From positions 1-32,435 of the forward strand of contig JAUWZT010000003.1 in NCBI GenBank assembly GCA_030615145.1: 32,435 nucleotides of DNA. The letters run 5' to 3'. The position numbers were made by a program, and so were the translations under genes. The notes below the pieces were generated by a model. The model did no database searches and was not told where the DNA came from. It worked only from the letters and a program-made list of their open reading frames with translations. Shown in pieces: positions 3,834-10,591 of the stretch; within the stretch, counting starts at the first letter, position 1; each line of letters opens with the position of its first letter. The stretch comes from Promethearchaeota archaeon (GTDB lineage: Archaea > Asgardarchaeota > Lokiarchaeia > Sigyniarchaeales > SOKP01).

Positions 3834-4832
3834 ATGTTAACTCCAGAACACGTTAAAGAAATTTTAAAGGATTACACCGTAAATCTTCGATTCCACGCAC
3901 GCGGGGGGCAAGGAGGCGTTACTGCTTCTAACCTGTGCGTCGAAGCTTTTTATGGCTATGGCGTCTGTCAACCGAGATTTGGAGCAGAACGAATGGGGAG
4001 TCCAACTGAAAGCTATGTAAGGCTTTCTGCGAACTCAGATTTAGTAAGGTCAAATGAACAAGTGTATGGCCCTCATTTCGTATCTGTGTTAGATGAATCG
4101 TTACTCTCAGAAGTAGATGTAACCGCTGGCGTACCGAAAGGTGGTTGGTTGATAGTAAATACAGTAGCGGACCAACTAACCATTCAAGAAGCTGTAAAGA
4201 GAAAAGACATAAACATTGCTACTATAGATGCGACCCGAATTGCTCTAGATGTTTTAGGTCGAAACATTACAAATACTATAATATTAGGTGCTTTAATAAG
4301 AATCTCCCACCTCTTTACTCTCGAAGAATTATCTAATGCAATCATGAAGCGATTCAAAGGAGCTATAGCTGGAAAAAATATCGAAGCAATAAAGCAAGCA
4401 ATTGAAGAAACTTGCATATTTGACATCGGAGTCGACCCAGATTTTACGGTTGACACTAAAGTACCGTGGCAACAAATAGATTTAGGCTTACCTGGATATA
4501 AGGAATTAGATAAAGCGGGTGTTTGGTATTGCGACGAAGAAGTAATCCCTGTTGGAAGCGATCAAGTGAATACTGGTTCATGGGGCGAATGGGATGTGAT
4601 TTGGGATGCGGAAACATGTACAAATTGCGCTCAATGTTGGTTCATTTGCCCTGATTTTGCCATTCTTAGAGAGAAAAGGGAAGACGGCAAATATCATATG
4701 ATTGGAATTGATAGACTTCATTGCAAATCATGTTTAAATTGTCTAAATATATGCCCTGTTCAAGCAATAAGTAAAAAATTAAAGCAAGGACCGGCTGCTT
4801 GTGCAGTACCGGAAGAAAGTGGAGGTAATTAA
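3834..4832 (+). CDS. porC: 2-oxoacid:ferredoxin oxidoreductase gamma subunit fused to delta (2x[4Fe-4S]) subunit
   Basis: Gamma motifs RFHARGGQGGVTA, FGAERMGSP and NTIILGA. C-terminal delta motifs TGSW, CTNCAQCWFICP and CKSCLNCLNICP. Confidence 0.92.
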   Translation: MLTPEHVKEILKDYTVNLRFHARGGQGGVTASNLCVEAFYGYGVCQPRFGAERMGSPTESYVRLSANSDLVRSNEQVYGPHFVSVLDESLLSEVDVTAGVPKGGWLIVNTVADQLTIQEAVKRKDINIATIDATRIALDVLGRNITNTIILGALIRISHLFTLEELSNAIMKRFKGAIAGKNIEAIKQAIEETCIFDIGVDPDFTVDTKVPWQQIDLGLPGYKELDKAGVWYCDEEVIPVGSDQVNTGSWGEWDVIWDAETCTNCAQCWFICPDFAILREKREDGKYHMIGIDRLHCKSCLNCLNICPVQAISKKLKQGPAACAVPEESGGN

Positions 4833-4833
4833 A

Positions 4834-6057
4834 ATGTCAGTAGAACCAATGAAATTATTTTTCAAAGAGATTAAAGAGCCCGTCGAGACGGCAATGATTG
4901 GGAATTACGCTGTGGCCGGAGGAGTTACCCAAACGGACCCTGATGTAATTTGTGCTTTTCCTATTACCCCTCAAACTCAATCCGTTGAGGGTTTATCTGA
5001 TGTCGTTCATCAAGGAAGATTAAAAGCAGCCTTCGTCAATGTCGAATCCGAATTAGCAGCTATTAGTTATTCAACGGCAGCTTGCGCTGCAGGTGCCAGA
5101 ACCTTTACTGCTACAGCATCACAAGGCTATTTATTAATGTCAGAAGCCTTGCCTATGGCAGTTGGTTGGCGTGTCCCGTTAACGATGATGATTTCAGCGA
5201 GAGCTTTTAATGCTCCTAATCTTTCTATATGGAACAGTTGGGAATATGTGTTAACTGATTACGGTTGGAACTGTGTAGTATCGGAGAATGTTCAAGAAAC
5301 CTACGATGCAGCAATTTTGTCAGTTATAATGTCAGACAATTCTTTGTTTCCAACTATGTTTGTACACGACGGTTTTATTATTTCTCATTCCGTTCAGAAA
5401 TTATGGTTAATTCCAGACGAGGTTGTACGGAAATTAACACCAAAAAAACCTCGCCACACAATCTCAACTGAGCGTCCTGGTGTATGGGGAGGGATTGTAA
5501 CTCCAAGCTTTTTCATGGAAGGAAGGAAGAATCTTGATGAAGCGAAAAAACCCGTGTTAGATATAATGAAAAAGGCGTTCGAAGAATTCGGAAAAGCGAC
5601 TGGGCGTCATTATAACTTAATTGAAACCTACAACTTAGACAACTCTTCAAAGACTGCGTTTATTACTATGGGATCGATGTGTGGAAACATCATTAGTTGG
5701 ATGACTAAAAACAAGGACATAGGATTGATAAAAATCAGAGCATACAGACCTTTTCCTTACGAGGAATTACAAAAGATTGTCCAAGAGCATAACATCGAAA
5801 AACTAATTATTCTAGAAAAATCAGATTCGCTAAATAATCTTTTACCACCATTTGCCACTTCAATAGCTACGGCGTTGTATCCGCTTAAAACTCTATTTAG
5901 ATGCTATATTGTAGGCTTAGGTGGACGAGATGTTACTCGAGATGAGTTCGCGGTTGTAAAGAAGAAAATGGAATCTGTTAACGATATGAAAGGGCAGCTC
6001 TATAGTTACCTTGGCGTACGGGAGACCAAAGATAAAATCTATGAGGTGAACAGATAG
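4834..6057 (+). CDS. porA: 2-oxoacid (pyruvate-type):ferredoxin oxidoreductase alpha subunit
   Basis: GNYAVA, FPITPQT, VESE, RTFTATASQG, DGFIISH, RPFP and GLGGRDV motifs. Start corrected to ATG 4834, which has SD GGAGGT at 4821-4826. Confidence 0.93.
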   Translation: MSVEPMKLFFKEIKEPVETAMIGNYAVAGGVTQTDPDVICAFPITPQTQSVEGLSDVVHQGRLKAAFVNVESELAAISYSTAACAAGARTFTATASQGYLLMSEALPMAVGWRVPLTMMISARAFNAPNLSIWNSWEYVLTDYGWNCVVSENVQETYDAAILSVIMSDNSLFPTMFVHDGFIISHSVQKLWLIPDEVVRKLTPKKPRHTISTERPGVWGGIVTPSFFMEGRKNLDEAKKPVLDIMKKAFEEFGKATGRHYNLIETYNLDNSSKTAFITMGSMCGNIISWMTKNKDIGLIKIRAYRPFPYEELQKIVQEHNIEKLIILEKSDSLNNLLPPFATSIATALYPLKTLFRCYIVGLGGRDVTRDEFAVVKKKMESVNDMKGQLYSYLGVRETKDKIYEVNR

Positions 6058-7146
6058 ATGTCAAAACCAGAAAGAAATATAATTAAATTTGAAGATATAT
6101 TAGCTAGAGATGGAAAATGTAATGTTTTATTTTTAAACTACGATAACGAAGCTTTTATGAACACAGGGATTCAAGAATCAGGCGCTACGCCACCGCACGC
6201 TTCGACAACCACCGGACCCGGTGGAGAAAAAATTCCCGGAAAAGTTGGTGTAAAACAAGATTTAGTTACTCCTTTTGCTTTTTACGGGACAAAATCGTTA
6301 TTTTTAGCAACGGCAAACCCCGCTTATCCAGCAGATTTTATGGGAAAAGTTGCTGATGCGTTAAAGTCAAACGGGTCTGCTTTCATTCAAACATTAGCTG
6401 ATTGCATGAGGGGATGGCGACATCCTGCCGAAGACGCCGTGAAAATCTCAAAACTAGCTACTGATTGCGGTTATTGGCCTCTTTACACTATAAGAGTAAA
6501 AGAAGGCATTCCAACATTTTCTTATTATCGTGGATTAGATATAGATAAGGAAAAATTTGTAGAATACTTAAAATCTATGGGCCGGTTTAGACATCTCTTT
6601 AAGCCACAGTTCTTGGAAAAAGAAATTGATGAAATAATTTACTATACTGAACAACGTAACCTTAAATTAAAAGGACTTATTGAACAGTTTGGAGCCGAAA
6701 AGCCAATAGACTTTTATCAAGTAAATCGAAGAACTTTAGAACCTCAAACTCACTTACATCCTGGCCACGGATTATGCCCTGGTTGTGGCGCTGGAATGGT
6801 TTTGAATCAGATGGCTACAGCAGCTACAGCAGTCGCGGGTAACAACATTATTTACGTGAATAATACGAGTTGCAGTGAAGTATCGACAGCGAAAGATTTT
6901 GTAACTTCTTGGAAAGTTCCTTGGGTTCACCACTTATTTGAAAGTGGAGCTACTATAGCTGAAGGAATAAGCACAACTTACAAAATTCTTAAATCTAAAG
7001 GTTTGTTCAATGGAGAGGTGCCGTATGTTATTCACATTGCCGGCGACGGTTCTACATACGATATTGGATTTCAATTCCTTAAAGCAGCCCTTATCCGAAC
7101 AAGCTCTTTCGTTGAAATGAATGAATATTTAACTAATCAGAAATAA
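6058..7146 (+). CDS. porB: 2-oxoacid:ferredoxin oxidoreductase beta subunit, circularly permuted
   Basis: The N-terminal part carries YDNEAFMNTGIQESGATP..STTTGP, CMRGW, GYWPLY and GRFRHL, which are normally C-terminal. The C-terminal part carries PGHGLCPGCG, TSCSEV, VPWVH and GDGSTYDIG, which are normally N-terminal. SD GAGGTGA at 6043-6049. Confidence 0.92.
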   Translation: MSKPERNIIKFEDILARDGKCNVLFLNYDNEAFMNTGIQESGATPPHASTTTGPGGEKIPGKVGVKQDLVTPFAFYGTKSLFLATANPAYPADFMGKVADALKSNGSAFIQTLADCMRGWRHPAEDAVKISKLATDCGYWPLYTIRVKEGIPTFSYYRGLDIDKEKFVEYLKSMGRFRHLFKPQFLEKEIDEIIYYTEQRNLKLKGLIEQFGAEKPIDFYQVNRRTLEPQTHLHPGHGLCPGCGAGMVLNQMATAATAVAGNNIIYVNNTSCSEVSTAKDFVTSWKVPWVHHLFESGATIAEGISTTYKILKSKGLFNGEVPYVIHIAGDGSTYDIGFQFLKAALIRTSSFVEMNEYLTNQK

Positions 7147-7170
7147 TTTTATTTTACTTTATTTTTTTTT
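7147..7170 (+). terminator. Oligo-T tract, putative archaeal intrinsic terminator of the por operon
   Basis: TTTTATTTTACTTTATTTTTTTTT directly after the porB stop. Confidence 0.5.
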
Positions 7171-7228
7171 GAAATTATTATAGTGGAATACAATTTTTTA
7201 CATATAGTGCATTTATTAGAGTAATATC

Positions 7229-8512
7229 ATGTTTAAAATGAGTTTACAAGAGTGTTTGGCAAGGCGTAAAGATTGCTCTGGTGAGGGTCGTATTTTACAC
7301 TTATCTGTAGTTGAAGAGATTTGTAACTCTACACTTCAAGCGGCACCTTCAAATTCTCTATTTGTTGTATTACCGGATGGGGAGGATTACACTGGAGGGG
7401 CGTATAAATATAATAGCGATGGTTTGGTTCGATTAACTGATAAAGAAAAAACAAAATTTACCATGGAACTTTATCCTGAATTGTTTTGGAAGGAATCTAT
7501 TGAATTTGAGGATTTGATTCGGGTAGGGATTACATGGCAATATCTCTCATTAAAAGTGGATAGTATAGGGCTTGGTGTATCACAACGAGCAAGAGCGCCT
7601 AAAAAATATAATAAACTCGTCAACAATTTAACGAATCAAAATTATACCTTCTTATATTCGGTAGCAGTTCGAGAGAGAGATAGGGCAGCATTAGTAGAAG
7701 ATACTTCAGAACCTCTTCAAAAAAAAGCAGAGGAGGATACAATTTTACTCGACACTCCAGCTTGCTACAAGGACCGCGCAATCTATGAGAATAAGTATAA
7801 AGGTATTCCACTAGACGATGCTATTTTTAATCGGGTTGATGAAAAGACACCAAACCATACAAATTTACACCAAATCTCTCAACTGCTCTGGGCTTGTCAA
7901 GGAGAAAACGATCATACGACTCATGGAAACCGTGATGCTTTAGAGAAAAATGGATACGGTCGTGTGCATGCATCGGGATGTGCTGGATATGCAGTGTATC
8001 CAATATTATATGTAAATGATCTTGCTAATGTCCCTAATGGATCATATCTTTATAATCCCGTCGGATATTCTGCGTTAAATAGATGGATTAAGGTTGATGG
8101 AACCATAAGATACGACCATTTTATAAAAAAATTTAGCTCTGAGACTTTTAGCGCTGAGATTGAAAAGGAGTTTGAGATTAATTTCTCTAATTATGCCATA
8201 TTATTATGTGTTGATCGAAAAAAGCCTTGCGCGGGATTAATGCACAGAGTTATGAACCTTAAGTATTGGGCCGAAGTTGAGGCGGGAATGGCGTTAGCAG
8301 GTTTACAATTACAAGCAAATGCTTTAGGTTTGAAATGGCAAAAGAAAATATTGTCAAATCCAGATGATCCAAAATATAGAACATTGTTCAATCTCGATTC
8401 TGCTGAACAATCGATAAATAGTGTGGCAAAAAATTTAGTAAATCGTGCAAATAATGAGCGGGTGTCCCTTGAAGGAAGTTTGATACCAACTGTGCTATTT
8501 CATTTAATATAA
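7229..8512 (+). CDS. SagB/ThcOx-like nitroreductase-fold protein with two tandem domains
   Basis: C-domain: PLDDAIFNR, ISQLLWACQG, GRVHASG..YAV, GSYLYNP, EAGMALAGLQLQANALGL. The N-domain has degenerate equivalents: SLQECLARR, AAPS, GAYKYN, GITWQYLSLKVDSIGLG. Confidence 0.7.
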   Translation: MFKMSLQECLARRKDCSGEGRILHLSVVEEICNSTLQAAPSNSLFVVLPDGEDYTGGAYKYNSDGLVRLTDKEKTKFTMELYPELFWKESIEFEDLIRVGITWQYLSLKVDSIGLGVSQRARAPKKYNKLVNNLTNQNYTFLYSVAVRERDRAALVEDTSEPLQKKAEEDTILLDTPACYKDRAIYENKYKGIPLDDAIFNRVDEKTPNHTNLHQISQLLWACQGENDHTTHGNRDALEKNGYGRVHASGCAGYAVYPILYVNDLANVPNGSYLYNPVGYSALNRWIKVDGTIRYDHFIKKFSSETFSAEIEKEFEINFSNYAILLCVDRKKPCAGLMHRVMNLKYWAEVEAGMALAGLQLQANALGLKWQKKILSNPDDPKYRTLFNLDSAEQSINSVAKNLVNRANNERVSLEGSLIPTVLFHLI

Positions 8513-10066: not shown

Positions 10067-10591
10067 TCATTTTCTATCGTTTATTTTTTCAATTTCTTTT
10101 AGAATCTTTGAAAATATGTTAGTAGATATTCTAAATGTGGTGTTTTCTATTAGGAATTGGAGAAAATATTTGCATTCCTTTTTTGTTATTAGTCTTTGAT
10201 GTAATGCTTTAAGAATAATGCCTAATGTACCAGTGATCTTAAGTTCAAGCGTTCGCGCTATCTCTCGAGCTGTCAAATCATCAATGATAACGATAATTTC
10301 TTCGGTTTTATCTTGCATCTCTTTCCCAAGAGCGATAATAGAAGCCTCTCCAGAGTGGATTTGTAAATCTTCAAGTCTTTTTATGAGTTGTTTGGAGCTC
10401 GAGTTTTTTACGGTTAACCAGTCTGAAAAGCAGTCTTCTAAAATCAGAAATTCAGGAACAGTTTCATATCCTAACACTTCCTTCTTGACTATTGTCGTAG
10501 TATAACATGTTGAAAAAAGTTTAGGAAGTAATGTAATTGCTCCTATTTTCCCTAAATAGATTAGTGGAGAGGCATTAATTATAGCAATCAC
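10067..10591 (-). CDS. PIN-domain toxin, DUF3368 family
   Basis: NASPLI, LQIHSGEASII, IIDDLTAR and GTLGIIL motifs; 4-bp overlap with the upstream antitoxin gene. Confidence 0.88.
   Translation of the reverse strand: MIAIINASPLIYLGKIGAITLLPKLFSTCYTTTIVKKEVLGYETVPEFLILEDCFSDWLTVKNSSSKQLIKRLEDLQIHSGEASIIALGKEMQDKTEEIIVIIDDLTAREIARTLELKITGTLGIILKALHQRLITKKECKYFLQFLIENTTFRISTNIFSKILKEIEKINDRK

Follow-up and report, generated by a model that had tools for sequence, protein, structure and literature searches.

Can a thiamine diphosphate (ThDP) enzyme be encoded with the two halves of its cofactor-binding domain in swapped order, so that each end of the chain carries one part of its cofactor motif? 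The question is raised by an open reading frame (ORF) at positions 6058-7146 on the forward strand of a 32,435-nt stretch of DNA from a Promethearchaeota archaeon (GenBank assembly GCA_030615145.1, contig JAUWZT010000003.1, positions 1 to 32,435), which was analysed as a whole and is hereafter called the window. Natural circular permutation of proteins is a known phenomenon, and a first-pass annotation made from the sequence had taken this ORF for a permuted beta subunit of a 2-oxoacid:ferredoxin oxidoreductase (OFOR), giving coordinates, an ORF and motifs that all proved correct when the sequence was re-read. Here, we follow that proposal through profile and structure-chain comparisons, conservation, distribution, phylogeny and gene context, and conclude with good confidence that the ORF encodes a circularly permuted ThDP/[4Fe-4S] beta subunit (PP domain, domain VI) of a gamma-delta/alpha/beta enzyme of the type of pyruvate:ferredoxin oxidoreductase (PFOR) and 2-oxoisovalerate:ferredoxin oxidoreductase (VOR).

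Comparisons with canonical beta subunits returned the protein as two pieces in reversed order. The NCBIfam PorB model NF008819 matched it in two stretches, one of which covers residues 20-192 and profile positions 118-291 of 300 (whole-protein E 1.1e-64). When this model was used to search the genome in six frames, nucleotides 6115-6633 fell on profile positions 118-291 and nucleotides 6724-7113 on positions 4-122. Among solved structures, residues 5-115 of the PFOR beta chain 9bt4_C aligned with residues 228-347 of the query and its residues 119-283 with query residues 23-194 (E 1e-45), and the best-scoring solved beta chain, 5c4i_C of an oxalate oxidoreductase that we take to be the enzyme of Moorella thermoacetica, likewise aligned as two swapped pieces (E 4.7e-46). 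A hidden Markov model (HMM) built from 53 canonical relatives placed query residues 22-194 on positions 161-321 and query residues 225-352 on positions 43-163, while hhalign gave the two pieces probabilities of 100% and 99.9%, at canonical positions ~105-310 and ~3-130 of a 311-aa template. The halves therefore match PorB profiles in swapped order, as the first-pass annotation had expected, and do so well outside what chance would give.

The same alignments locate both the join of the old termini and the cut that made the new ones. At the internal join, the query runs up to residue 218 against template position 310 of 311 and resumes from residue 223 at template position 3, leaving ~4 residues between. 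The new ends fall between R347, the arginine of the canonical ..ERG in the turn after the GDG helix, and N22, which opens the strand ending in YDNE. Judged from this boundary, the cut lies inside the GDG-x-N diphosphate/Mg motif, at the helix-to-strand loop where it had been claimed to lie, and GDG and Y28-D29-N30-E31 stand 299 residues apart in the chain and in reversed order. The protein thus presents what characterizes a natural permutant, namely two segments homologous to the halves of one domain, their order swapped and the old termini joined. It also presents the features of an OFOR beta subunit, including PP-domain homology over the whole canonical length, the GDG...DN residues, four cysteines, and partner genes for alpha, gamma and delta.

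Along the plus strand, the ORF (362 aa and stop) opens with a new N-terminal extension (residues 1-21; 6058..6120), which like the C-terminal one was delimited in an alignment of 25 members at 55-89% identity. The segment homologous to the canonical PorB C-terminal half follows (residues 22-194; 6121..6639) and holds a strand plus YDNEAFMNTGIQ, C116, GYWPLY (residues 138-143) and MGRFRHL (residues 174-180). Within it, D29-N30 (6142..6147) form the distal half of the diphosphate/Mg motif, and C116 (in LADCMRGW; 6403..6405) aligns with the cysteine of APCPKGW and APCPTGW in 5c4i_C and 9bt4_C, respectively, at the canonical CPxGW position of the fourth cysteine of the proximal [4Fe-4S] cluster. 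An internal linker (residues 195-228; 6640..6741) corresponds in hhalign to the native C-terminal tail followed by the native N-terminal leader. Beyond it, the segment homologous to the canonical N-terminal half (residues 229-347; 6742..7098) holds PGHGLCPGCG, which begins at 6760 and contains the putative cluster ligands C240-x2-C243 (6775..6786; aligned to CAGC of the PDB chains), a third ligand, C272 (in NTSCSEV; 6871..6873; aligned to the cysteine of TGC in the same chains), VPWVH, and G329-D330-G331 (7042..7050), the proximal half of the diphosphate/Mg motif, with its helix ending at R347. The chain closes with a new C-terminal extension (residues 348-362; 7099..7143), and both extensions, of 21 and 15 residues, are as short and as novel as had been proposed.

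The residues on which ThDP and cluster binding would depend are strictly kept. Across the 25 members, N27-Y-D-N-E-A32, N35-T-G37, Q39, G329-D-G331, D335-I-G337, R347, C116, C240, C243 and C272 are invariant in every one, as are L207, Y220 and Q230 in the linker region, while the N-terminal extension bears a loosely kept motif, N-I-I-x-h-x-D/E-L/I-L, with I9 conserved in at least 90%. Over 276 pairs from 24 genes, nonsynonymous divergence (pN) was 0.155 against a synonymous divergence (pS) of 0.718, and the extensions and linker were looser (pN 0.21-0.25 vs pS 0.68-0.72; N-terminal extension 0.212 vs 0.677, C-terminal extension 0.232 vs 0.721), figures that are only rough because synonymous sites are saturated, which is one of the points to be set against our interpretation. 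The permuted gene is under purifying selection, and its extensions and linker are still constrained.

The arrangement is widespread among relatives of the window's archaeon. A script that located each half in 270 fetched proteins found 122 in the permuted (C-N) order, 128 in the canonical (N-C) order and 20 with a single half. A search of 5.8 billion proteins gave 636 matches, of which the 120 listed, mostly full length, span 96% down to 55% identity and derive from NCBI, JGI, ENA and Logan assemblies, with contigs of up to 959 kb; the gene also occurs on single-contig genomes. The first-pass annotation had suggested looking for the same permutation in other Asgard genomes, and it is present there: among 161 genomes of the window's class, the window's own included, 129 carry it at E <= 1e-60, in all 7 sampled families (106/134 in f1, 1/1 in f31, 12/14 in f2, 4/4 in f32, 1/3 in f4, 2/2 in f3 and 2/2 in f33), as do 34 of the 40 high-quality genomes (at least 90% complete, at most 5% contaminated).

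Outside the class the picture is different. Of the 300 genomes sampled from the phylum, 223 fall outside this class and represent 26 other families; a single one of these (G211) has the permuted gene, and all the others match only over about residues 20-236 (E 1e-21 to 1e-38). The 2.8-kb contig that carries the G211 copy (L030; G211:C23:1-2801) comprises gamma-delta, alpha and beta up to residue 266, 75-86% identical to the window. This copy is likely a binning contaminant because it reaches 86% identity, is cut by the end of so short a contig and comes from a genome of another family with 8% contamination. HMMER over 1.84 billion cluster representatives gave 1373 matches at E <= 0.001; among the best 150, only P0121 (365 aa, 55% identical) and the fragment P0122 were collinear across the join. 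By source name, the proteins listed from the 5.8-billion search are from Lokiarchaeota, Promethearchaeota and Promethearchaeia, with one each from Thor-, Hermod- and Helarchaeota. An apparent alpha-beta fusion in G153, a 715-aa open frame, was discarded as a scaffold gap of N.

What the swapped order might mean for the protein can be read from its homology. The chain would run from the YDNEAFMNTGIQ strand through the canonical C-terminal half with Cys116, the old tail and old leader, and the N-terminal half, which would supply Cys240, Cys243 and Cys272, to the GDG helix. A canonical PorB-like fold is expected because the halves keep all the secondary-structure elements of the PP domain and the break falls in a helix-to-strand turn. 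In the folded protein, the chain ends would lie side by side at the cofactor site. A single Mg-diphosphate would be coordinated there jointly by N30 and by D330, which lies three residues into the final 34, and the proximal cluster would be ligated by C116, C240, C243 and C272. We infer this meeting of the ends at a single Mg-ThDP site, together with a native-like fold, cofactor binding and catalysis, from homology alone, which tempers our confidence.

To place the permutation in time, the two halves were aligned separately to the canonical HMM and merged in alignment space, giving a tree of 42 permuted sequences (non-redundant at 85%, from 107) and 75 canonical ones. All 42 permuted tips form one clade (support 1.0) on a stem of 0.82 substitutions per site, with a mean within-clade depth of 0.49, and the addition of 97 canonical genes from Asgard and from named bacterial and archaeal genomes left the clade intact (42/42, support 1.0, stem 0.86). 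On this tree the permutation arose once; the rearrangement preceded the radiation of the window's class (Lokiarchaeia-type Asgard archaea by source names) and has since been kept by purifying selection. Asgard canonical PorBs join at the fourth node up (support 0.85).

The sister group is poorly resolved, which also tempers our interpretation; it consists of the alpha-beta fusion P0246 with the fragment P0190 and then of giant multidomain fusions, whose placement may be long-branch attraction. As to how the permutation arose, we infer that the most likely route, also the one favoured in the first-pass annotation, was a tandem duplication whose copies fused and then lost their outer parts, because a complete native tail joins a complete native leader, as fused and trimmed head-to-tail copies would give. 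Other results do not favour this account. No tandem N-C-N-C intermediate was found among the 270 proteins, and the terminal extensions are not significantly like duplicated segments (offset-scan control, z -0.5 to 1.6). Candidate relics of duplication, in which low-stringency hhalign put the N-terminal extension on the canonical helix and the C-terminal extension on the loop and strand, were set aside since that control was not significant: the N-terminal extension scored z -0.44 (rank 229 of 333), or z 1.64 with a gap, and the C-terminal extension z 0.77 to 1.61, with a single post-hoc window, NEYLT, at z 2.45.

The same protein might alternatively have been reached by a split of the beta gene at the helix-strand loop and re-fusion in reverse order, or by a break seeded by a mobile element. 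Such routes are unlikely, and of the competing explanations they survive best. The lack of duplication relics and tandem intermediates speaks for them, as does the behaviour of the motif in canonical relatives, where it is a hot spot of invasion: the two closest intein-bearing ones, P0124 and P0135 (48% and 42% identical), carry a LAGLIDADG intein between ..FTYV and CYDNE, at a site 5 residues from the cut, and P0142 has two motif inteins, after GDGA and between YMN and TGIQ. Against a split-and-refusion or mobile-element origin, no natural split was found, the native tail lies within ~4 residues of the native leader, which is most simply obtained from head-to-tail copies, and the upstream frame in 80 related loci is open for at least 90 codons in 77, with 2 at a contig edge and 1 with 72 codons. 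P0205, P0216 and P0218, which consist of the C-half only and start a few residues from the cut, were considered as natural splits yet look like fragments, P0216 and P0218 because the start methionine is absent, and P0205 has the look of a truncated gene call. Separately, two loci have an extra 3' copy downstream, one covering residues 308-358 at 80% identity after an inserted 204-aa gene (L019:2079-2231), the other covering residues 264-333 at 49% identity with 3 stops (L134:3752-3961).

A more elaborate possibility would combine origin with mechanism. Here the terminal extensions would clasp the Mg-ThDP pocket, docking of the termini would gate cofactor loading or activity, and the rearrangement would have been seeded by a mobile insertion that targets the motif. 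We regard this combination as quite unlikely; if true, it would represent a novel mode of assembling and controlling a ThDP site.

The beta ORF is the third gene of a tightly packed plus-strand unit that begins with a 332-aa gamma-delta fusion subunit (3834..4832), comprising a POR gamma domain (residues 24-191) and a 2x[4Fe-4S] ferredoxin domain (residues 255-312). This protein matches Pfam POR (E 5.8e-27) and Fer4 families, as well as NCBIfam PorC_KorC (151.7 bits, cut-off 81.1) and, under the cut-off of 60.05, PorD_KorD (54.8 bits). The alpha subunit, with domains I and II (4801..6057; Pfam POR_N E 2.5e-52, PFOR_II E 7.3e-13), likely starts at the ATG at 4834, one base past the gamma-delta stop, because conservation in the alignment of homologues begins at K11-M12. 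Its stop codon (6055-6057) abuts the beta ATG, and a Shine-Dalgarno-like GAGGTGA (6043..6049) lies 8 nt before that ATG. The ribosome-binding site, reading frame, four cluster cysteines and operon position, on all of which the first-pass annotation relied, were found intact in the sequence, the PDB alignments and the loci compared.

This gene order is conserved. Among 23 other loci, 21 have flank upstream of beta, and alpha directly precedes beta in 20 of these, with gamma-delta before alpha wherever the flank reaches; the alpha-beta order is kept even in L026-L029, the most distant loci, with identities of 52-63% for beta and 65-73% for alpha. Only L009 (in G258) departs from it: beta there follows an unrelated protein of 385 aa (L009:213-1370) in which GRWCP(K/Y)C motifs recur, and no alpha was found within the 1.5-kb flank examined.

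With respect to substrate, the ten nearest canonical representatives score best as PorB in nine cases and as VorB in one, while the window's alpha aligns best with the PFOR alpha chain 9bt4_B (E 4.6e-54) and has the ITP threonine and ARA arginine as in PFOR chains, not IRP. Scores against the oxalate oxidoreductase models fall far below their thresholds (beta 195.3 vs 590 bits, alpha 135.9 vs 500, delta 69.1 vs 230). We read the enzyme as probably PFOR/VOR-like, and not an oxalate oxidoreductase, because its nearest representatives are PorB and VorB and its alpha residues follow PFOR. As for expression, metatranscriptome libraries from two studies yielded contigs over 5800-6743 (X15) and 6159-6867 (X19), one of them bridging the internal join; they give a hint that the gene is expressed, tempered by the facts that they are 90-99% alike, so that some derive from relatives, and that such libraries can hold DNA. 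Together, the invariant motif residues and cysteines, pN below pS, the kept operon order and the RNA-library contigs indirectly support a functional beta subunit.

The genome from which the window comes (236 contigs, 85% complete) encodes further OFOR genes: contig 57 has a canonical PorB accompanied by its own alpha, contig 83 a PorB fragment at its end, and contig 8 a third OFOR alpha with a weak beta-type match alongside. Since a canonical PorB operon is present in the same genome, the permuted enzyme is an extra paralogue, which brings up a second alternative, that the permuted protein folds and binds alpha and no longer holds ThDP productively, acting as a scaffold, a regulator or a subunit for electron transfer only. 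Part of the evidence that favours such a catalytically dead paralogue also weighs against our own interpretation. The beta protein stays below every curated whole-protein cut-off (PorB 218.6 vs 405 bits, VorB 182.2 vs 405, TIGR02177 14.2 vs 261.9), so that a collinear match at a curated score, which an OFOR beta subunit would give, is missing; Pfam TPP_enzyme_C covers residues 20-111 alone (23.2 vs 21.9 bits). Moreover, 32 of the 161 class genomes, including 6 of the 40 high-quality ones, are without a match at E <= 1e-60, which makes the enzyme dispensable or replaceable, one of the 32 (G057) having a 105-residue contig-end fragment at 90% identity that just misses the threshold (E 3.8e-60). 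The long stem (0.82-0.86) in turn points to a burst of change after the rearrangement. Against loss of catalysis stand GDG, YDNEA, NTG, Q39 and the four cysteines, all invariant in 25/25 where relaxation would be expected, and a partner alpha that is 65-96% conserved and keeps the PFOR substrate-binding threonine and arginine positions. On balance we consider a catalytically dead subunit very unlikely and an active, permuted OFOR beta subunit the better explanation.

An assembly or binning artefact, with halves of a canonical gene wrongly joined, is vanishingly improbable, and the misassembly that the first-pass annotation named as a refutation is excluded, because the same order occurs in 122 of 270 proteins of many sources and in 129 of 161 class genomes, on long contigs and single-contig genomes alike, because the permuted proteins form their own clade with a long stem and not a mosaic of canonical halves, and because an independent 1540-nt DNA contig (record 13, run X2) covers 5800-7263 with 35 differences and no gaps, running from alpha into beta, across the internal join and past the end of the gene.

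A separate observation concerns three of the 129 genomes that carry the permuted gene, from two genera, in which an in-frame insert of 30 nt, whose second codon is TGA, lies between G37 and I38 of NTGIQESG (L131:1352-1381 in G321; L132:1332-1361 in G377; L133:1281-1310 in G376). The insert-bearing genes have no stop besides this TGA and stay under purifying selection on both sides of it (pN/pS 0.06-0.26, pS 0.70-0.88, between insert-bearing copies). The insert can form a hairpin of 9 bp with a 5-nt loop, flanked by a CUG/CAG helix. Among the 9 hairpin pairs, 3 have both bases altered and 1 has become G-U, with no pair disrupted; the covariation score was reached by 16 of 500 shuffles, thin evidence given that only three sequences are available. 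In addition, the codon before the TGA (AAU, AAU and AGC) is similar to codon 9 of the insert (AAC, AAC and GGC), which stands at the 3' base of the stem.

Candidate readings of the insert are translational bypass, selenocysteine decoding and excision from the RNA. Hop elements comprise a take-off codon just before a stop, a hairpin and a landing triplet, a description that the part of PMC8211752 consulted gives only for phage T4 gene 60 and yeast mitochondrial byps, and the insert's layout fits it. Selenocysteine is possible because SepSecS is encoded, above the curated cut-off, in all three genomes (G321, G377 and G376), as it is in the window's genome. No canonical bulge-helix-bulge intron motif was seen at the insert by eye, Rfam gave no match at E <= 1 in L131-L133, and a metagenome pattern scan for the TGA insert returned 119 stretches, of which 0 encode a beta homologue, the pattern being too loose. 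To our knowledge the insert, if bypassed, would be the first archaeal hop element.

Gene callers truncate such genes: in L131, what follows the TGA is the ORF P0105. It is one of 12 among the 120 listed clusters that start at an internal methionine, at window-protein positions 81, 95, 100 or 117 (P0087, P0089, P0090, P0093, P0094, P0098, P0105, P0107, P0110, P0112, P0113 and P0120), so that N-terminal interruptions may be more common than 3 in 129 genomes. Eleven of the 12 end at the normal C-terminus, and P0107 diverges past residue 328.

Downstream of beta, a T-rich tract on the plus strand (7147..7170), noted on sequence inspection, probably marks the end of the transcription unit; a consensus scan found no bacterial-type terminator, its bacterial-type consensus being uninformative for this archaeal DNA. 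The next gene (7229-8512, plus strand) encodes a protein of 427 aa, one stretch of which is weakly SagB-type or nitroreductase-like (TIGR03605, E 3.6e-10, under the cut-off). It is kept downstream of beta in L009-L012 at 87-93% identity and had no match in the other loci, most of which have only ~1.5 kb downstream. In L009 a two-gene cassette (170 aa and 99 aa) stands between beta and the 427-aa gene, and a 174-aa protein of the window (10067-10591, minus strand) is by eye a close homologue of its 170-aa member (L009:2607-3119); the 170-aa/99-aa pair looks like a mobile two-gene cassette.

Set beside known systems, the closest is canonical PorB (NF008819 and NF008818; 9bt4 chain C), with which the permuted protein shares both halves over essentially the whole length at ~40% identity, as well as GDG, the DN strand, NTGIQ, four proximal-cluster cysteines, GYWPLY, RF(R/K)HL and the partnership with alpha, gamma and delta. 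It differs in its swapped halves, in a normally contiguous GDG-x(about 26)-DN motif of which each chain end holds one part, in the two terminal extensions, in the fused gamma-delta subunit and in a score below the cut-off. Oxalate oxidoreductase (5c4i; NF045790-92) is similar in that the window's gamma-delta protein matches its delta model NF045790 over positions 57-307 of 316 (E 3.6e-19), whereas its beta chain has the canonical order and its alpha IRP where the window's alpha has ITP.

Rearrangements of other kinds have been described for ThDP enzymes. In the consulted part of 10.1101/2021.03.21.436335, the orders PP-PYR-x and PYR-x-PP among ThDP families are termed a circular permutation of domain order and the GDG...N motif is called 'strictly maintained'; the permuted beta subunit shares with these a permuted chain order within the ThDP superfamily, but as described there whole domains are moved, whereas the break in beta falls inside the PP domain and the motif. 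The split-gene transketolase of Carboxydothermus hydrogenoformans, as presented in the portion of PMC7661550 consulted, is also a ThDP enzyme that tolerates a chain break, while the permuted beta subunit is a single chain broken within its cofactor motif. No permuted OFOR and no permutation internal to a PP domain was found in the full-text literature searched, a corpus beyond which lie most subscription journals, supplements and Asgard isolate gene tables, and the first-pass annotation, too, was aware of none.

These findings bear on how such archaea are annotated and on what a ThDP site can withstand. Proteins of this family are named 'hypothetical protein' at NCBI and OFOR beta subunit at JGI, the former because the rearrangement drops them under the model cut-offs, and one OFOR has therefore probably been missed in metabolic reconstructions of these archaea. 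For the 89%-identical P0004, feature matches were confined to generic TPP_enzyme_C clusters. According to the part of 10.1101/726976 consulted, Asgard energy metabolism and one model of eukaryogenesis both have ferredoxin-dependent 2-oxoacid oxidation at their core. In ThDP enzymes a contiguous GDG-x-N motif is regarded as a hallmark, and here an archaeal class appears to keep, under selection, a motif assembled from both ends of the chain. The family thus offers a natural test of how much rewiring a ThDP site tolerates and a ready-made design for split or permuted OFORs. Finally, as a clean and rare genomic change that every one of the 7 families sampled from the class shows, against 1 of 223 genomes from the rest of the phylum, the permutation can serve as a phylogenetic marker for this lineage of archaea.

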